From a bacterium (lineage in GTDB: Bacteria > Patescibacteriota > Minisyncoccia > Phycocordibacterales > Zambryskibacteraceae): a stretch of 64,000 nt of DNA. The stretch lies in assembly GCA_030649135.1 (NCBI GenBank), contig JAUSGI010000008.1:64001-128000 (forward strand). The letters are read 5' to 3'. Positions 6,861 to 13,436 of the stretch are shown here, piece by piece. A program made the translations under genes and the position numbers. Position 1 is the stretch's first letter, and each line of letters starts with the position of its first letter. The notes beneath the pieces were generated by a model. The model made no database searches. It was not told the DNA's origin and saw only the letters and a list, made by a program, of their open reading frames with translations.

Positions 6861-7717
6861 ATTTTCTCTATAACTCGTAACTTGGCACTGCGCGAACGTG
6901 GGTTGTTCATCGTCTCTTCTTCGCTTGCTGTTATCGGTTTTTTGGTTATTTGCCTGGCGGATTTTTCCTTTATTTTTTCCCGGAAGAAATTCTTGACTAT
7001 TCGGTCTTCTAAGCTATGGAAGGAGATAACCACCAATCTGCCTTGATGTCCGAGAGCTTCAAACCCTTTCTCCAGTCCGACCTCTAGACTGGAAAGCTCT
7101 TCGTTCGTCGCGATTCGGAGAGCTTGGAAAGTCTTGGTGGCGGGGTGAATTTTGTCCCGAAAGCTTCTGTGTTTTACCGTCTCCACCACCCTAACAAGGT
7201 CGAATGTGGTTTGAAACGGTTTGACCTTTCTTTGTTCCACAATGGCTCTTGCAATTTTTCCGGATAACCTCTCTTCTCCGAAGCCGCGCAGGATGAGTTC
7301 AATGGCGTGCTCATCCCAGGAGTTTAAAATGTCGGCGGCTCGGATGCCTGTGTTAGACATTCTCATGTCCAGAGGTTCGTCTCTAAGAAAAGAGAATCCT
7401 CTGCCGGAGCGCTCGAGCTGGTCGGTGGAAATACCGAGGTCAAAGAGGATGGCGTCAACCTTTTGGGTTACGACTTTGTCCAAGTCTCTGAAGTTTGCTC
7501 GGGTTACATCTACCTTCGGGTCTTGGTCGATGGCGATTACCTTTACTGTCGGGAATCGCCTTCTCACTTCCTTGCTATGTCCCCCGCCGCCATAAGTGGC
7601 GTCGAGGAATATTTCCCCAGACTTGAGGTCGAGAGCATTAATGCTTTCGTGTAAAAGAACAGGTTTATGCATATTCTGACTCGAGTCGTTTTCTATAGGC
7701 CGACCAGCTTGAGGCAT
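6857..7717 (-). CDS. rsmH: 16S rRNA (cytosine1402-N4)-methyltransferase RsmH/MraW
   Basis: HKPVLL...LDATYGGGGHS motif typical of MraW. Confidence 0.9.
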   Translation of the reverse strand: MPQAGRPIENDSSQNMHKPVLLHESINALDLKSGEIFLDATYGGGGHSKEVRRRFPTVKVIAIDQDPKVDVTRANFRDLDKVVTQKVDAILFDLGISTDQLERSGRGFSFLRDEPLDMRMSNTGIRAADILNSWDEHAIELILRGFGEERLSGKIARAIVEQRKVKPFQTTFDLVRVVETVKHRSFRDKIHPATKTFQALRIATNEELSSLEVGLEKGFEALGHQGRLVVISFHSLEDRIVKNFFREKIKEKSARQITKKPITASEEETMNNPRSRSAKLRVIEKI

Positions 7718-8060
7718 TCCAGATTTCCACCCTGTCGTGAACGCCGGTAATAACGACTGGGTTTTTCAGGTCCGCAAACTCCCGCAAAAATTCGGGGACC
7801 AGAATTCTGCCTATAGAATCGATCTCAACTTCAGATGCACCGGAGAAAGTGAATCGTGCATAGCGATGGTCACTTTCTACATGCCCAAGTTTCCCCACCT
7901 CTTCGGAGATTTGAACCCAGGTTTTGTGGGGGTAGAGAAAAAGACAATGATCTTTGCCTCGAGTAACAACGACTTTGCTACCGAGAGCTTTTCGGAATTT
8001 GGCAGGCAAAGAGAAGCGATTCTTCTCGTCAACTGTATGTGTGTACTCGCCGATAAACAT
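7665..8060 (-). CDS. mraZ: Transcriptional regulator MraZ
   Basis: MFIGEYTHTVDEKNRFSLP...TRGKDHCLFLYP. Duplicated MraZ domain. 131 aa. Confidence 0.9.
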   Translation of the reverse strand: MFIGEYTHTVDEKNRFSLPAKFRKALGSKVVVTRGKDHCLFLYPHKTWVQISEEVGKLGHVESDHRYARFTFSGASEVEIDSIGRILVPEFLREFADLKNPVVITGVHDRVEIWNASSWSAYRKRLESEYA

Positions 8061-8132
8061 TGTTTTTTCATATTACCACTATTTCCCACTAACAAACATT
8101 CTATACCACCACATTCCACAACACTACTAAAG

Positions 8133-8162
8133 TTATCCCCTTTTTATCCCCTCCTTATCCCC
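8133..8162 (-). promoter_or_regulatory. Three direct repeats of GGGGATAA (minus-strand sense) at 11 bp period upstream of mraZ, candidate MraZ-binding boxes
   Basis: TTATCCCC at 8133, 8144 and 8155 on the plus strand, about 75-100 bp upstream of the mraZ ATG. Resembles the arrangement of MraZ repeats in other bacteria. Confidence 0.45.
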
Positions 8163-8173
8163 AATACTAAAAA

Positions 8174-8196
8174 TGTCAAACACCAGGTGTTTGACA
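8174..8196. promoter_or_regulatory. Perfect 23 bp palindrome TGTCAAACACC-A-GGTGTTTGACA in the mraZ upstream region
   Basis: 11+1+11 inverted repeat containing TTGACA. Operator-like. Confidence 0.4.
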
Positions 8197-8233
8197 CAAT
8201 ATAATTCTGAAATAGAGAAAGCCTCACACAGAG

Positions 8234-8256
8234 AAGCCATGCTTGGCTTTTTCTAT
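8234..8256. terminator. Hairpin AGCCA-TGCT-TGGCT followed by TTTTTCTAT, terminator candidate
   Basis: Lies 27 nt past the stop of the minus-strand gene 8283..8513. A T-run is present in the plus sense and a U-rich tract in the minus sense. Confidence 0.35.
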
Positions 8257-8282
8257 GCGAGGCCTACCGCTCGTGGTGGTCG

Positions 8283-8513
8283 TTAGAGCGACCAGTCCAT
8301 GCCTGGCATCCTCTGGTCCCGATCGTCCTCCGTGACCGCCTGAGCATTGGCAGGGACGAGATCCCATTCCCTCGGGACATCGTCGCCGATGCCGAGACCA
8401 GGGCAGTCGGGTTTCGTCACGAAGATGTAGGTTTCTCCTACCTTCCTGGCAAGTCCTCCCCCCTGCGTTCCGTAAATACCGAAGTTGTAGGTACAACCTT
8501 TCTTGGTATTCAT
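8283..8513 (-). CDS. Hypothetical small protein (76 aa) in a GC-rich islet
   Basis: Strong SD (AAGGGAGACCA-ATG). Consensus promoter TTGACA-17-TAAGAT upstream. Locally GC-rich versus flanks. Confidence 0.5.
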   Translation of the reverse strand: MNTKKGCTYNFGIYGTQGGGLARKVGETYIFVTKPDCPGLGIGDDVPREWDLVPANAQAVTEDDRDQRMPGMDWSL

Positions 8514-8563
8514 TGGTCTCCCTTCTTCCGAAGTTATCTACCGCTATCTTATCATACTACTAC

Positions 8564-8614
8564 TTATATGTCAAGGATAGCTTTTTTAGCGTTGGATTGG
8601 ATAAAGGATTTACG
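8564..8614 (-). repeat. Duplicate of the gyrB 3' terminus (encodes ...RKSFIQSNAKKAILDI*), left copy
   Basis: 51 bp with about 85-90% identity to 9604-9654 (gyrB ...RKSFIQSNAKKAVLDV*), same orientation. Confidence 0.65.
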
Positions 8615-8727
8615 GTAGTAATAATTCTTGGTTTACTTTATTCATTAGTAGGTCTTGAGTGACTCGTTACTTTTGTGTTGGCAGTCATATTAGCTAAACA
8701 GATAGAGATACTTAACAAGTTGGACAG

Positions 8728-8916
8728 ATGATTAGTCATGTTCTACAAAATATCATTCTATTTTTTAGTTTAGTTGGTATATGGCACCTTATACTTTTAA
8801 TTCTTAGCAACACACAAAACAAAGAAACATTTAAAGTTGACGTTAAACCAGAATTAGCAGGAATTTTATTATTGTTGTTTGTGATTGTGCTTCTATCTTT
8901 ATCTGGAGAGTTATAG
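8728..8916 (+). CDS. Hypothetical small membrane protein (62 aa)
   Basis: Hydrophobic ORF in the AT-rich insert. Weak RBS. Confidence 0.25.
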   Translation: MISHVLQNIILFFSLVGIWHLILLILSNTQNKETFKVDVKPELAGILLLLFVIVLLSLSGEL

Positions 8917-9047
8917 TGATTAGGTTATCCACACCTATCCCCTAAAAATTGGCTATTTGCTCTCCATATTACTTTCATAGTATAGTATGGGTGTGTCTGC
9001 GGGACGTCAGTCCTATCTAGCCAAATATTGCGCTGGAGACAGGCACA

Positions 9048-9422
9048 CTAAAGGATGTCGCTTATGGCGGCATTTTTTAGTGTCTCATCGTCATCGGAAG
9101 ATCGTAGCCCTTTTCCAGTAGATGTTTGTATCATTTTTATATCCCTATATTGTTTAGTGAACCATGCTGGTACAACACTTAGGAATTCAATAGCACCGTT
9201 ACCTTCTTGTGTTACTACGACTTTTACACGGAATTTCTGCACTATGGCTACAAAACCCCAACAACGGATAACGACATTCATTGGCACCCAAAGTCCTCTC
9301 CGATTTACTTTCTTGTAAACGATTTCCTCATCGTATTCTTGAAATGTAGTAGACGTCTCAAGTATGAATTTCGCCTTCTCAAGCATGTCAAAACGAAGTA
9401 TTTGCGCTCTTTTATCTCTCAT
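9048..9422 (-). CDS. Hypothetical protein (124 aa) in the AT-rich insert
   Basis: GGAG 11 nt before the ATG. An in-frame TAA lies 36 codons upstream, preceded by a 24-codon ORF in the same frame. Confidence 0.4.
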   Translation of the reverse strand: MRDKRAQILRFDMLEKAKFILETSTTFQEYDEEIVYKKVNRRGLWVPMNVVIRCWGFVAIVQKFRVKVVVTQEGNGAIEFLSVVPAWFTKQYRDIKMIQTSTGKGLRSSDDDETLKNAAISDIL

Positions 9423-9603
9423 TTTCTTTGGCGCTCCATAAACAAGGTGGTTAAACCCCTCTGATGTAAAACGAATTTCCTGACCAAGTGCAGGACAGTT
9501 TACAGAAATAAATGTTTTTTAAAGTGCTGCGGCTTCCCGTTTTATCTGTTCATAGTCTGCAACACGCTCTTCTATTGATTTTTTGTCTGTCATTTTATAA
9601 AAA

Positions 9604-11559
9604 TCACACGTCTAAAACGGCTTTTTTAGCGTTTGATTGGATGAAAGATTTGCGGGAAGGGACGTCGGTGCCCATGAGAATGTCGAAAATACGGTCCGCT
9701 TCTCTCGCATCCACAACAGTTACTTGTTTAAGAATTCTCGCTTTTGGATCCATGGTTGTTTCCCAAAGTTCTTCCGAGTTCATTTCCCCGAGACCTTTAT
9801 AACGTTGGATGTCGGCGCCTTCGATAGTCTTCTCGTTTTTTTCTTCGTCGGAATAGACATAAATAATTTCTTTCCCTTTTTTGATTTTATAGAGCGGCGG
9901 TTGAGCGATGTAGACATAGCCGGCATCGATGAGCGGTCTGAAAAATCTATAAAGTAATGTCAAGAGTAGAGTACGGATATGCGCGCCATCAACATCGGCA
10001 TCGGTGGCAATAATAATTTTGTGATAACGGAGTTTAGTGATATCAAAAGTATCCCCTATTGCCGTGCCGAAGGCGATGACTAGGTTTTTAATCTGTTCGC
10101 TCGCGAGCATCTTATCTAGACGCGCGCGCTCAATATTGAGAATCTTACCGCGCAAAGGGAGTATGGCTTGGATGCGTCTGTCTCTTCCCATCTTGGCGGT
10201 ACCGCCAGCCGAATCTCCCTCAACGATAAAGAGCTCTGCTTCTTCTGGGGTAGTGCCAGACTGGCAATCAGAGAGTTTGCCAGGCAGAGTCATGCCCTCA
10301 AGCGCTCCTTTGCGCAGGACTGAGTCCTTGGCCGCCTTGGCGGCTTTGCGCGCCTTGAGCGCGAGTACCACCTTCTGAATCATACTTCTGGCATCATCGG
10401 GATTTTCCTCAAGATAGGCAGAGAATGCGTCACCGAAGACGGTATTAACCATGCTCTGGGCCTCCACGCTACCGAGTTTTGATTTGGTCTGTCCCTCAAA
10501 TTGAATCTCACGCAATTTAATCGAAATGACAGCAGTCAGACCCTCGAGCGCGTCATCTCCGGTGAAGTTATCCTCCTTTTCACTCACCATATTATTCTTG
10601 CGGGCGTATGAATTTAGACTTCTGGTCAGGGCAGTCTTGAAACCGGTAACGTGAGTACCGCCTTCAGTAGTGTAAATATTATTGGCGAAAGGCAGGATGC
10701 GGGAAGAGATATCATCGACATATTGCAGGGCCACCTCCACTGTCTCGTAGTCGTTACCGTTCGCCTTCTTCTCAACATAGAAAATATTTTTATGTATCGG
10801 TTTGTTTCGCTCATTTTCGAATCGTACGAGAGATACCAGTCCCCCTTCGAAATAAAAAGACATGGAAGGTGTTTCCAGTCCCAACTCTCGTAGATAAAAG
10901 ACTTCGCTATCGGCAACTTTTGCTATCCCTCGGGCATCCAGGACCGATATGCGGAGACCCTTGACGAGATATGCCTGCTGGCGCAAATGATCGGCAATCC
11001 GTTCGAAGTTGAAGTTGGTATCCGGGAAAATAGCGGGGTCCGGTTGAAAGGTAATGACGGTACCATGGAGTTTTGAGGCGCCAATTTTCTTGACTGCACT
11101 TTTTCTTTTGCCCTGGCTGTACTCTTGAGCATAAACTCCCCCATCTCGGTGCACTTCGGCCCGGCAATAAATAGAGAGAGCATTGACTACCGAGCCACCG
11201 ACGCCGTGTAGTCCTCCGGAGATTTTGTATCCCTCTCCGCCGAACTTGCCGCCGGCATGCAGGGTAGTCATGATGGTCTCGAGTGCCGAGACTTTGGTTT
11301 GTTTGTGCGTATCAACCGGAATACCCCGGCCGTTATCAACCACGCGGACACGATTGTTGGGCAAGAGCACAACCTCTATATCGTCGGCAAATCCCCCCAT
11401 GGCCTCATCCCGAGAGTTGTCGAAAATCTCCGTCACAAGGTGGTGGAGGCCGTCGGGACCGGTGGTACCGATATACATGCCTGGACGTTTGCGCACCGGC
11501 TCGAGACCCTCTAAGACCGTAATTGATTCAGCGCTGTAATTGCTCTCTTTTTTCGGCAT
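9604..11559 (-). CDS. gyrB: DNA gyrase subunit B
   Basis: GHKL ATPase motifs (LVTEIFDNSRDEAM, GLHGVGGSVVNALS). Toprim and C-terminal domains. 651 aa. Confidence 0.95.
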   Translation of the reverse strand: MPKKESNYSAESITVLEGLEPVRKRPGMYIGTTGPDGLHHLVTEIFDNSRDEAMGGFADDIEVVLLPNNRVRVVDNGRGIPVDTHKQTKVSALETIMTTLHAGGKFGGEGYKISGGLHGVGGSVVNALSIYCRAEVHRDGGVYAQEYSQGKRKSAVKKIGASKLHGTVITFQPDPAIFPDTNFNFERIADHLRQQAYLVKGLRISVLDARGIAKVADSEVFYLRELGLETPSMSFYFEGGLVSLVRFENERNKPIHKNIFYVEKKANGNDYETVEVALQYVDDISSRILPFANNIYTTEGGTHVTGFKTALTRSLNSYARKNNMVSEKEDNFTGDDALEGLTAVISIKLREIQFEGQTKSKLGSVEAQSMVNTVFGDAFSAYLEENPDDARSMIQKVVLALKARKAAKAAKDSVLRKGALEGMTLPGKLSDCQSGTTPEEAELFIVEGDSAGGTAKMGRDRRIQAILPLRGKILNIERARLDKMLASEQIKNLVIAFGTAIGDTFDITKLRYHKIIIATDADVDGAHIRTLLLTLLYRFFRPLIDAGYVYIAQPPLYKIKKGKEIIYVYSDEEKNEKTIEGADIQRYKGLGEMNSEELWETTMDPKARILKQVTVVDAREADRIFDILMGTDVPSRKSFIQSNAKKAVLDV

Positions 11560-11642
11560 TTAAGTTTCCCCTATTCTAGCATAAATAGAGCTAGAAAGAA
11601 AGAGAAAATGTGTCAAAAACCCATATATAGGTTATAATTTAA

Positions 11643-12125
11643 GTGATGGTTATTTCAGAAGACAAGATTAGACGAGCAATAGAAGAAAAAGAGATAAGTA
11701 TACAGCCATTCAATGGGTCTTTACTTAAAGATGTTAGTTACACTTTCACTCTAAGTAACAAGTTTTGTCTGCCAAAAGTTACTACCGAATTCATTGACGC
11801 AAGAGATTCTATAGAGTTTGAAGAAAAAGTGATGCCTGATGAAGGATACTTACTTAGGCCTGGAGAATTTATTGTCTGTTATACCAAAGAAAAAGTCACT
11901 TTAAATAACAAATTCGTTTGTTTAATAAGTACAAGAGCATCGTTAGCTCAAATGGGATTAAATGTTACTCAAGGTTCCTTCCTGACAGGATCTGATACGG
12001 ATAACATCTTTGCGCTAGAGACAAGTAATAATGGAAACCTGCCCATTAAATTATTCCCTGGAATGAAGATAGCGAAAGGGGTTTTCCTAAGAGTAGACTC
12101 GGATTCTAGTTCTAACATTGGGTGA
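11643..12125 (+). CDS. dcd: dCTP deaminase family protein (dUTPase fold)
   Basis: N-terminal DKIRRAIEEKEISIQPF and FALETSNNGNLPIKLFPGMKIAKGVF resemble Dcd. A short 160 aa version. Confidence 0.7.
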   Translation: MMVISEDKIRRAIEEKEISIQPFNGSLLKDVSYTFTLSNKFCLPKVTTEFIDARDSIEFEEKVMPDEGYLLRPGEFIVCYTKEKVTLNNKFVCLISTRASLAQMGLNVTQGSFLTGSDTDNIFALETSNNGNLPIKLFPGMKIAKGVFLRVDSDSSSNIG

Positions 12126-12154
12126 TGTTTTGTATATACAATAAAATTATATTA

Positions 12155-12163
12155 TGCTATAAT
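12155..12163 (+). promoter_or_regulatory. Extended -10 promoter element TGCTATAAT at the start of the GC-rich island
   Basis: About 95 nt upstream of an sORF with a perfect SD. -35 not clear. Confidence 0.35.
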
Positions 12164-12257
12164 CACAAGTGGATTATACGCCTGTTTTAAGGCCAGCCAT
12201 GCACTCTCCAGGCATTTCGGGACTTGAGCCCGTTCAGCCTAGAAAGGAGGGATGTGC

Positions 12258-12431
12258 ATGCTAAATGTGATTTCGCTGGATCAACCCGTCCGGTTCGTGG
12301 ATAGGTCGGGCCAGCCCTGCGAGGGGAAACCTCTATTTCTCTCGCGGGACACGTATGGTAACTGGGGTCTCTCTGTTCAATACAGTGAAACAGGGATTTC
12401 CTGGGTTGCTTTCGACCAAATCAAGCAGTAG
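12258..12431 (+). CDS. Small ORF (57 aa) MLNVISLDQPVRFVDRSGQPCEGKPLFLSRDTYGNWGLSVQYSETGISWVAFDQIKQ
   Basis: Near-perfect SD (AAAGGAGGGATGTGC-ATG). Below the ORF-track size cutoff. Confidence 0.35.
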   Translation: MLNVISLDQPVRFVDRSGQPCEGKPLFLSRDTYGNWGLSVQYSETGISWVAFDQIKQ

Positions 12432-12485
12432 TACTGCTGGTCAAAAGCAATTGCCCGTCTAGAACAGACGTGAGCGGAAATCCAC

Positions 12486-12647
12486 ATGAAGTCCCTAAAT
12501 GGCAAGGGTATAAGTGTGGGCGAGACCGCAGACTCGGCATCCCTCTTGCCGTCTTCCAATGAGGCACGCATCTACTGTGGGCTGAGGAAGAGAAAAGAGA
12601 CAAGGCGATTGGTTCCCAATCGTCTTCCGTCCAAAGTTTGTTTATGA
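12486..12647 (+). CDS. Small ORF (53 aa) MKSLNGKGISVGETADSASLLPSSNEARIYCGLRKRKETRRLVPNRLPSKVCL
   Basis: Same frame as the previous sORF. Weak RBS. Could instead be part of a structured RNA. Confidence 0.2.
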   Translation: MKSLNGKGISVGETADSASLLPSSNEARIYCGLRKRKETRRLVPNRLPSKVCL

Positions 12648-12910
12648 AAATAGATTTTGGACGGAGGAGGTATCCCAATATATCCATGACCTAACTAGGC
12701 CATTATTTTAGAGCGTATTTAATACCATCAATCATGATTGACTTATCTATTTACATATGCTATCATTAACAGCAGATTAGATCGCAAGGCTTCCGTTCCC
12801 CGCCAGTTAAAGGGGATTACAAACCGGCATCGACTCACAAGATGAGTCATGCCAATGAAGTTCCTTCAAGAGTCTCAGTCACACAAGTGACTAGACGCGG
12901 GAGAAGTAAA

Positions 12911-13258
12911 ATGTGGTATCAGTACGGATGGGGAGAAGAGAAGGACATGCAGCGCTCAGCAGAGCGTTGGATGTGCAAGGGGTTTCAAGTTCGGGCCAAC
13001 CTCCAGCAGGGGACGGCTTGGGCCCTCGTGTCGGATTTCACCTTCCCTGGTGCGATCCCACATGAGACTTGCCCGGATTGTAGGGGAACCGGCTGGTGCT
13101 CGCACCATATCCCGGACTGCCCTGGCGAGCAGGTCTGCGACGGGAAGTGCTACACGTGCGTCGAGAGCGGGACGATCTGCCTCCAGCCCACCTGGGCGGA
13201 GGGTCGGGTCGTAACGCTCGAGGAAGCGGTGGCCTACCTGAAGCAGGGCCATCACTAA
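12911..13258 (+). CDS. Cys-rich protein with a DnaJ CR-type zinc-finger-like motif (CPDCRGTGWC...CPGEQVCDGKCYTC)
   Basis: Start chosen at the internal ATG with SD GGGAGAAG (the ORF track starts at 12842). GC-rich. Confidence 0.5.
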   Translation: MWYQYGWGEEKDMQRSAERWMCKGFQVRANLQQGTAWALVSDFTFPGAIPHETCPDCRGTGWCSHHIPDCPGEQVCDGKCYTCVESGTICLQPTWAEGRVVTLEEAVAYLKQGHH

Positions 13259-13277
13259 GATCACAACGTGTCACCAA

Positions 13278-13319
13278 GGCCCTGCGCGACTAGCAATCGC
13301 GCAGGGCCACTTCTTTTTA
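13278..13319 (+). terminator. Rho-independent terminator GGCCCTGCGCGA-ctagcaa-TCGCGCAGGGCC + ACTTCTTTTT
   Basis: 12 bp perfect GC stem followed by a T-run, directly after the island gene. Confidence 0.75.
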
Positions 13320-13436
13320 CACTCCTTCTTCTATTCTCGTTCTTACATTTATAATACGCTGTAGCGTAAATTAAGTGTATACGTTATAAAGTGTCTATAG
13401 GTAGAAGATAACGTGTGTATATATCTTCTTAAAAAC

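Follow-up and report, generated by a model that had tools for sequence, protein, structure and literature searches.

The window analysed here, a stretch of 64 kb, carries the 3′ end of gyrB as two direct copies (8564–8614 and 9604–9654, 1040 nt apart), which raises the question of how a second end of an essential gene came to lie in the gyrB–mraZ interval. The initial annotation had attributed the arrangement to site-specific integration into the gyrB 3′ end with target-end duplication, the element having since decayed. Between the copies, the segment 8615–9603 is indeed AT-rich, with a GC content of 36.7% against 46.3% for the window, and the 62-residue ORF, the 124-residue ORF, the in-frame TAA and the 24-codon ORF described there are all present; the segment does not, however, hold small hypothetical ORFs only, for the 24-codon and 124-residue ORFs belong to one LPD3-like gene, and an sRNA gene and half of a further gene, its 3′ part, lie there as well. 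The parts of the locus, from gyrB towards mraZ, are as follows.

9604–11559, minus strand: gyrB, the functional gene, with matches to Pfam DNA_gyraseB, Toprim, GyrB_C and HATPase_c
9048–9593, minus strand: LPD3-like gene of 181 codons with one nonsense codon, starting 11 nt after the gyrB stop
8992–9079, plus strand: conserved sRNA gene of ~88 nt, antisense to the last ~10 codons of the LPD3-like gene
8728–8916, plus strand: orf62, the gene of a small two-helix membrane protein, a cassette member in a subset of relatives
8615–8731, plus strand: remnant (3′ half) of orf48, a small membrane gene, complete in relatives, whose 5′ side is cut off here by a junction
8564–8614, minus strand: relic of a gyrB allele, its last 16 codons and stop (RKSFIQSNAKKAILDI-stop), bounded by the junction 8614/8615
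8546–8574, minus strand: promoter-like site TTGACA-17-TAAGAT with a TG-extended −10 box, the −35 box lying inside the relic
8283–8513, minus strand: orf76, a small gene of 56.7% GC, cargo of a variable slot
8173–8238, minus strand: two hairpins downstream of orf76, from a terminator scan and comparison with empty-site intergenic regions
8061–8170, minus strand: conserved mraZ promoter region with GTGG/GGGGATAA repeats, where homology to all relatives resumes

The functional gyrB is 83–91% identical to the gyrB of Zambryskibacteria, and its tail (9604–9654) is of the type AVLDV-stop, as in the closest relatives. The second of the two hairpins (8173–8197), followed by a T-run, occupies the place of the gyrB terminator in relatives with an empty site. 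At the protein level orf62 is 77–79% identical in L095, L167 and L168, and a 62-residue gene is called at the same place in L081–L083. No significant Pfam or PHROGs family was found for orf62, orf76 or orf138, the best weak matches having E-values of at least 0.03.

The two copies of the gyrB end are real and share one orientation, though on formal alignment they agree at 39 of 51 positions (76%), not at the approximately 45 first reported, with a core pair (8580–8615 and 9620–9655) that is identical at 32 of 36. The longest identical run is 14 nt (GCTTTTTTAGCGTT). When the 64 kb window was compared with itself, as had been proposed, only these two direct copies were found; there is no third copy and none is expected by chance, the best match in 300 shuffles reaching 28 of 51. 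Translated from the minus strand, the relic and the resident tail read RKSFIQSNAKKAILDI-stop and RKSFIQSNAKKAVLDV-stop, and 10 of the 12 nucleotide differences between them are synonymous or change one stop codon into another, while the remaining two are both exchanges between Ile and Val. The probability of such a synonymous pattern under 12 random substitutions is ~2e-5. Divergence between relic and resident falls within the range seen for orthologous tails of different Zambryskibacteria species, in which 34–44 of the 51 nt agree. Because the differences are mostly synonymous and of between-species size, the left copy was the working end of a second, diverged gyrB allele, still coding until shortly before the event that placed it here, and not a duplicate made on insertion. 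Comparison of the tails was also tried as a means of telling which copy is native and was not decisive, since the tails of other species share 34–44 of 51 nt with the resident and 33–42 with the relic.

The initial annotation had suggested looking for the empty site in relatives. Nine of them have an empty gyrB–mraZ slot of 127–174 nt, and others are filled with unrelated cargo of at least six kinds. A cassette consisting of the LPD3-like gene, the sRNA gene, orf62 and orf48 follows gyrB in at least 15 related contigs; in L168, other slot content follows orf62. In the gyrB tree, genomes with the cassette are intermixed with genomes that lack it. In the pair formed by an empty locus (L005) and a filled one (L098), the flanks are 98.4% identical and a 1572-nt cassette stands in place of 60 nt, with one crossover within the final ~15 nt of gyrB and the other in the mraZ promoter. 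L098 and L096 in turn have cassettes that are 99–100% identical, while their flanks agree at only 86–96%. The replaced 60 nt of the filled/empty pair and the near-identical cassettes in diverged flanks together show that the cassette moves by homologous recombination, using the gyrB tail as one arm and the mraZ promoter region, which is the right homology arm, as the other. The same core genes thus enclose different cargo in different genomes, and nearly the same cargo is found in diverged backgrounds, the two features expected of a recombination hot spot with flank-mediated exchange. In ultra-small, uncultured Patescibacteria, where classical mobile elements are few, small cassettes would accordingly be swapped beside an essential gene by plain homologous recombination and occasional illegitimate joints.

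The window departs from this pattern at one point. Colinearity with the carrier locus L081 is lost exactly at 8614/8615, in the middle of orf48, and returns at ~8166 in the mraZ promoter. At the junction, which reads ...ATTACTAC/CGTAAATCC... with the slash at the joint, our own reading of the alignments finds microhomology of only 1–2 nt. The junction is known from a single assembly, an independent Logan contig stopping at 9033, short of it. The orf48 remnant, translated as VVIILGLLYSLVGLE-stop-LVTFVLAVILAKQIEILNKLDR compared with ...VVMILGLLYSSVGFEWLVTFVLAIILAKQIEILNKLDR for the orf48 of L081, has an in-frame TGA (8660–8662) where relatives have Trp. Since homology breaks off inside a gene that is intact in relatives, the alignments identify 8614/8615 as an illegitimate join within a gene and not as the end of an element.

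We consider it likely that the relic is the scar of one-sided illegitimate recombination, and that it arrived or remained together with orf76. The gyrB–mraZ interval would act as a slot for cargo that related genomes trade by homologous recombination, with the last gyrB codons as left arm and the mraZ promoter as right arm. A one-sided, homology-anchored event, with one homologous and one illegitimate crossover, would have fused codon Arg635 of gyrB with the middle of orf48. In the favoured direction, a fragment comprising gyrB tail, orf76, terminator and mraZ promoter would have passed from an unsampled cassette-free donor, presumably by transformation, into a cassette-bearing genome, where it would have been anchored in the mraZ region at the cost of the 5′ half of orf48 and of earlier slot cargo. 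This direction of transfer is preferred because the right flank (mraZ to ftsI) and the cassette are both most similar to the carriers L167 and L168, by small differences in identity, which makes the orf76 patch the better candidate for the incoming piece. The segment from relic to mraZ is also laid out like a non-carrier locus, with tail, cargo, terminator and mraZ promoter in succession. As a recombination scar the joint is ordinary, though unusually clean.

The same anatomy would result from the mirror-image event, in which a native genome with gyrB (ending AILDI-stop), orf76 and mraZ received the 3′ part of gyrB, the LPD3-like gene, the sRNA gene, orf62 and half of orf48 from a carrier, anchored in gyrB, so that the relic would be the native tail. 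Transfer of the cassette into an empty-site background is documented for L098, and this genome holds other GC-rich cargo between pheS and gyrB. The affinity of the right flank, like that of the cassette, to L167 and L168 nevertheless speaks for the opposite direction, and affinity does not shift along gyrB, where comparison by quarters and by 400-nt chunks gave no sharp change that could mark a mosaic boundary and only a weak right-flank preference for the same two carriers. We therefore regard this direction as rather unlikely.

An assembly chimera, with reads of two co-occurring strains (one carrying the cassette, the other gyrB, orf76 and mraZ) joined by the assembler, has to be weighed for a metagenome-assembled genome, the more so as related strains of both locus types co-occur in the same environments. 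It appears improbable, because graph assemblers join at shared k-mers and the junction has no k-mer common to the putative parents, the longest identical run of the tails being the 14 nt given above; the region 9033–10018 is moreover reproduced exactly by an independent assembly.

The integration reading can be put in its strongest form as an attP-bearing mobile element that mimicked the gyrB 3′ end, restored the gene with its own copy, displaced the native tail and has since lost its integrase. Direct repeats in the same orientation do bracket an AT-rich segment, a mimic carried by an element would leave behind just such a diverged, coding-like second tail, and the cassette is horizontally mobile. 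However, no integrase was called in 15 related cassette copies, and no integrase or recombinase gene was found in 8615–9603 or in the neighbouring ORFs of the window between 4.7 and 14.6 kb (~4 kb on either side). A second gyrB tail was present in none of the 11 related cassette intervals that cover the expected place, the right end falls in orf48, which continues intact in relatives, and the filled/empty pair has its crossovers in homologous flanks with 60 nt replaced, in place of a precise insertion with duplication. An integrase or recombinase gene, direct repeats at a constant position in every copy and a precise empty site, by which an att duplication is recognized, were all lacking. A recombinase acting in trans is possible; integration as such is very improbable and largely refuted. 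Local duplication of the gyrB end, by replication slippage or as a tandem duplication split by an insertion, would fit two nearby copies in the same orientation but can be dismissed almost entirely, since a pattern in which 10 of 12 changes are synonymous with frame and stop kept (P ~2e-5 under random substitution) rules out neutral decay of a local duplicate, and divergence has reached the between-species level while the neighbouring orf48 remnant already has a nonsense codon.

One-sided illegitimate recombination of this kind has precedents. [quoted passage not shown] As in those systems, the exchanged DNA here has one end in conserved sequence, while the joint at its other end is non-homologous and nearly free of microhomology; DNA of the recipient is lost or displaced, and an orphan 3′ fragment of a conserved upstream gene lies beside retained cargo. 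The borders of the patch agree with such an event, in that the gyrB side is colinear, homology is found again at ~8166 and the joint truncates orf48; so does the relic, which by its identity of 39/51 nt and its synonymous pattern is a diverged homologue and not a local copy. In contrast to the described cases, the anchor is the essential housekeeping gene gyrB of an uncultured Patescibacterium known from its sequence alone, for which direction and transformation are deduced, and the orphan fragment carries a predicted promoter. Some integrative elements, such as tRNA-, tmRNA- and guaA-targeting islands, insert at a gene's 3′ end and carry a replacement for it. The present locus resembles these islands in having two gene 3′ ends of the same orientation, one functional and one orphan, around foreign-looking DNA, and differs from them in lacking an integrase and a constant element end, in that none of the other carriers has the duplication, and in that exchange in relatives proceeds by homologous arms.

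Within the cassette, the 24-codon and 124-residue ORFs are the two parts of a single conserved gene of 181 residues, split by the change of a Tyr codon (Tyr25, TAY) to TAA at 9519–9521, where all homologs read have Tyr; the 124-residue ORF (9048–9422) is its distal part. The TAA is reproduced by an independent Logan contig. Two 124-residue database proteins (P0113 and P0117), considered as a sign that the stop codon is shared, were rejected as contig-end artefacts. The family comprises 196 homologs, mostly of 179–181 residues and up to 92% identical. A match to Pfam LPD3 (PF18798) runs across the stop, the read-through protein scoring 24.8 bits (E 2.7e-5) and the closest intact homolog (P0001) 27.2 bits against a gathering threshold of 27 bits; 26 of 30 family members match this profile, only over positions 2–75 of its 114. 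A search of the protein model against the PDB with Foldseek gave no match, nor did a search of the PDB with the sequence profile.

All LPD3-like genes examined have the sRNA antisense to their 3′ ends. The sRNA has its own putative promoter (TTGCTC at 8957–8962 and TATAGT at 8981–8986), of which the −35 and −10 boxes are both conserved, and is folded as a closing stem (P1) around two hairpins, downstream of which lies an intrinsic terminator whose U-run is at 9073–9078. When 38 distinct sequences were aligned, 98.6% of the cells were paired, against 39–50% with the partners slid, and 14 of the 33 pairs have a compensatory change. Of 81 related loci searched with a covariance model, 78 have a match next to the LPD3-like gene, and in the other three the contig stops short of the site; the window contains a single match, and control loci totalling 941 kb give only three weak hits. 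No Rfam 15 family matches at its gathering score, and the sole match in an Rfam E-value scan of 7500–10500 was Atu_C8 (E 0.5, 21.5 bits where the gathering score is 50). Many Patescibacteria have this conserved pair of protein and antisense sRNA, which Rfam does not contain and which offers a concrete subject for experiments.

The pair is reminiscent of type I toxin-antitoxin loci with 3′-overlapping convergent antisense RNA, such as txpA/RatA and bsrG/SR4 of B. subtilis: a protein gene and a short structured RNA converge with overlapping 3′ ends, the RNA has a terminator and a promoter of its own, as far as can be predicted, and the two are strictly co-inherited in variable, horizontally exchanged regions. 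A type I locus combines its antisense RNA with a small hydrophobic toxin of less than 60 residues, whereas the protein here has 181 residues and is predicted to be soluble, and in this window its gene is inactivated. We suggest, tentatively, that the LPD3-like protein and the linked convergent ~88-nt sRNA might form an undescribed, toxin-antitoxin-like two-component selfish or defence module of Patescibacteria, in which the RNA would restrain a RelE/BECR-like RNase, either through overlap with its 3′ end or by binding. Such a module would move between genomes by flank-mediated recombination beside gyrB, and the gyrB-tail relic would then be a by-product of cassettes competing for the slot.

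The relic was also said to supply the −35 box of the promoter of orf76, and the sequence supports this. The site TTGACA-17-TAAGAT with its TG-extended −10 box (8574–8546) matches at 10 of 12 positions in addition to the TG extension, lies 33 nt upstream of the orf76 ATG and is the sole such site on the minus strand within 7600–9800. Its TTGACA is built from the relic codons Leu-Asp-Ile, corresponding to Leu/Ile-Asp-Ile in the gyrB-terminal promoter generally. The intact gyrB tails of ~11 relatives have the same predicted layout, with TTGACA equally far from the stop codon and a −10 box 16–18 nt downstream, and the match is 12/12 in L012, L055 and L059. Judged from these motifs, the gyrB-terminal promoter in the relic most likely still drives orf76, and the last gyrB codons may generally double as an outward-reading promoter for cargo that lands there.

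Homologs of orf76 (n = 18) have the conserved core GTQGGGLA..FVTKPDCPGL.GDE.P.EWD, the closest beyond this genome's own copy being 72% identical. They sit elsewhere in other Patescibacteria, some as cassettes between 30-nt direct repeats; the window lacks the 30-nt repeat by which they are bounded in L088 and L092. The gene is not in any gyrB locus of the relatives, and a donor locus joining gyrB to orf76 was not found, the homologs never standing beside gyrB in the seven contexts seen.

The window belongs to a Zambryskibacteria-like bacterium (Parcubacteria/Patescibacteria) represented by an NCBI MAG (locus tags Q7R69_). The gene order on the minus strand is pheS ... gyrB, an interval, mraZ, rsmH and ftsL/ftsI, and the gyrB of the window is 83–91% identical to gyrB of Zambryskibacteria MAGs. 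The interval and its borders comprise the following features:

11559..9604, minus strand: gyrB, upstream border of the interval; its last 51 nt (9604–9654) are the resident tail
9048–9593, minus strand: LPD3-like gene, matching Pfam LPD3 across TAA 9519–9521
8992–9079, plus strand: sRNA gene of about 88 nt, folding into two hairpins within a closing stem, then a terminator that ends in a U-run; 8957–9079 with its promoter, overlapping the 3' end of the LPD3-like gene
8728..8916, plus strand: orf62, a small membrane protein gene
8615..8731, plus strand: remnant of orf48
8564–8614, minus strand: left copy of the gyrB tail (the relic)
8283..8513, minus strand: orf76, a small GC-rich gene
8060..7665, minus strand: mraZ, downstream border of the interval

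The gyrB end occurs exactly twice in the 64 kb window, where no copy is expected by chance, and the best match in the shuffled intergenic region never exceeded 28/51. The initial annotation is partly confirmed: the two copies that it reported exist, but their identity over the full 51 nt is 39/51 and not about 45/51, with 32 of 36 positions identical in the repeat core (8580–8615 and 9620–9655). The AT-richness that it noted also holds, with 36.7% GC in 8615–9603 versus 46.3% window-wide.

In a codon-wise comparison of the left copy with the resident tail, 10 of 12 differences are synonymous or stop-to-stop, and the remaining two are Ile/Val changes that are found in natural gyrB tails as well; 12 random substitutions in the resident tail gave a comparable outcome in 2 of 100,000 trials. 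Either copy matches the gyrB tails of other species at 34–44 of 51 nt, and the two copies are mutually no closer. A decayed local duplicate is ruled out by this synonymous pattern together with the between-species level of divergence. Since the copies are no more alike than tails of different species, the left copy must have terminated a functional gyrB of a different lineage until a short time before its arrival here.

The window is colinear at 78% identity with the related contig L081 through gyrB and on through the cassette (LPD3-like gene, sRNA, orf62) as far as a point within orf48, its last gene. Homology is lost precisely at 8614/8615, at the border of the left copy, and returns at about 8166, within the mraZ promoter. 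Because orf48 runs on in L081, the left copy adjoins a break within a gene rather than a true element terminus. The segment 8614–8170 (relic, promoter, orf76, terminator) stands in place of the 5' half of orf48 and the cargo found here in relatives, and its layout of gyrB tail, cargo, terminator and mraZ promoter is that of a cassette-free locus.

In nine close relatives mraZ follows gyrB after 127–174 nt without cargo; besides a terminator hairpin, this spacer contains the conserved mraZ promoter and its GTGG repeats. In other relatives the site is occupied by unrelated genes, for example a GIY-YIG protein, an SGNH-like hydrolase, membrane proteins of about 190 aa or a RelE-type pair, and L168 has the cassette as in the window up to orf62, followed by yet another cargo; the gyrB-mraZ site is a cargo slot. 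All LPD3-like homologs of at least 85% identity (L081–L084, L095–L101, L114, L155, L167 and L168) lie directly after gyrB, and more distant homologs lie elsewhere. Upstream of mraZ (window 8061–8170; homologous regions in L002–L027) there is a conserved series of GTGG(G/A)(T/A)A repeats, which are probably MraZ boxes.

The flanks of L005 (empty) and L098 (filled) are 98.4% identical, and a 1572-nt cassette in L098 takes the place of 60 nt. Its left junction falls in the final 15 or so nt of gyrB, where L098 has a synonymous variant, GTGCTTGATGTGTAG, that other carriers typically show, and L005 has GTTCTAGACGTGTAA, and its right junction lies among the mraZ promoter repeats; this repeat region is the right recombination arm. 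The L098 cassette is 99–100% identical to that of L096, whereas the flanking genes of the two are just 86–96% identical, and carriers and non-carriers are interleaved in the gyrB tree. The cargo exchange here is homologous recombination through the conserved flanks, with neither duplication nor integrase. The L098 cassette has also lost 237 nt between direct repeats of 15 nt, a deletion that truncates orf186 (L096 6546–6797 versus L098 6546–6560).

Several relatives have pheS and gyrB adjacent; in the window about 1.9 kb (11560–13436) is inserted between them, which looks like a second cargo slot and contains:

11643–12125: dCTP-deaminase-like gene
12252–12431: orf59, GC-rich, no family match
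12842–13258: orf138, 59% GC, no family match

Site-specific integration into the gyrB 3' end, as originally proposed, is not supported: the break lies inside orf48, no second tail lies beside any of the roughly 90 other gyrB tails examined, and the L005/L098 exchange involved neither duplication nor integrase. The relic is best explained as the scar of an exchange with one homologous and one illegitimate crossover, the pattern of homology-facilitated illegitimate recombination, a mechanism also put forward to explain orphan gene ends in T6SS and Rhs loci (PMC5361080); it is a fresh example of an already known type of event. Two directions of transfer would yield an identical product. We favour entry of a "gyrB tail – orf76 – terminator – mraZ promoter" segment into a cassette-bearing genome, because carriers L167, L168 and L095 are, by a small margin, the closest match to the right flank (mraZ to ftsI) as well as to the cassette. 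No mosaic boundary was found in gyrB, and no donor locus was found for the orf76 segment, the 18 orf76 homologs sitting in other contexts. The slot as a hot spot and the protein/sRNA module are more interesting results than the relic itself.

The idea that the relic supplies the orf76 promoter is supported by sequence comparison, with a refinement. TTGACA-17-TAAGAT with a TG extension (window 8546–8574) lies 33 nt upstream of the orf76 ATG, its TTGACA formed by the relic codons Leu-Asp-Ile. In the intact gyrB of about 11 relatives TTGACA has the same position, beginning 10 nt ahead of where the stop codon ends, and a −10 box follows 16–18 nt downstream; the match is 12/12 in L012, L055 and L059, and in L012, L026 and L059 a gene follows directly. 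This shared layout points to a recurrent gyrB-terminal promoter that arrived with the relic and was not made by the rearrangement. At the end of intact gyrB, the codons for (Ile/Leu)-Asp-Ile form the −35 box of this putative outward-reading promoter:

L012, 7934–7962: gyrB-terminal promoter
L055, L059, L063, L068, L073, L047, L048, L026: gyrB-terminal promoter at the gyrB stop

Between the copies, a 24-codon ORF and a 124-aa ORF are a single gene; translated through TAA 9519–9521 it encodes 181 aa, and the LPD3 match spans the stop (E 2.7e-5). Its 196 homologs are nearly all 179–181 aa long, with identity up to 92%, and every homolog read has Tyr at the stop position (Tyr25); the nonsense codon is also present in an independent Logan assembly. 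Beyond the conserved sRNA gene and orf62, orf48 is present as its 3' half; this small membrane gene is intact in relatives and 5'-truncated here, with an in-frame TGA (8660–8662) where relatives have Trp. With these two nonsense codons, decay of the cassette's protein genes seems to be under way in this genome; orf62 and the sRNA look intact.

Just past the LPD3-like stop codon, conservation is far above that of the surrounding coding regions. Over 38 distinct sequences 98.6% of cells are consistent with sRNA pairing versus 39–50% with the partners slid, and compensatory changes occur at 14 of the 33 pairs; G-U pairs, of which there are many, place the sRNA on the strand antisense to the LPD3-like gene, and conserved −35 and −10 boxes precede it. 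By covariance model the sRNA adjoins the LPD3-like gene in 78 of 81 related loci searched (L166 lies outside the 81), down to 30% protein identity, the contigs of the other three (L114, L116, L155) ending before the site. The model has one hit in the window and three weak, terminator-like hits in 941 kb of control loci, and no Rfam family matched. Across Patescibacteria, each LPD3-like gene examined has the sRNA in strict linkage, and the two may form a toxin-antitoxin-like module.

In other Patescibacteria the orf76 homolog is itself a cassette of about 370 nt between same-orientation copies of a 30-nt motif, GTTCTAAACGCGTCCAGNGTGGNGTACTGC, which is absent from the window and occurs at the following positions:

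L088: 1190, 4115, 4488, 5043
L092: 201, 1375, 1744, 2121, 2344

The motif flanks neighbouring small genes too, and the L088/L092 array is therefore integron-like or repeat-bounded.
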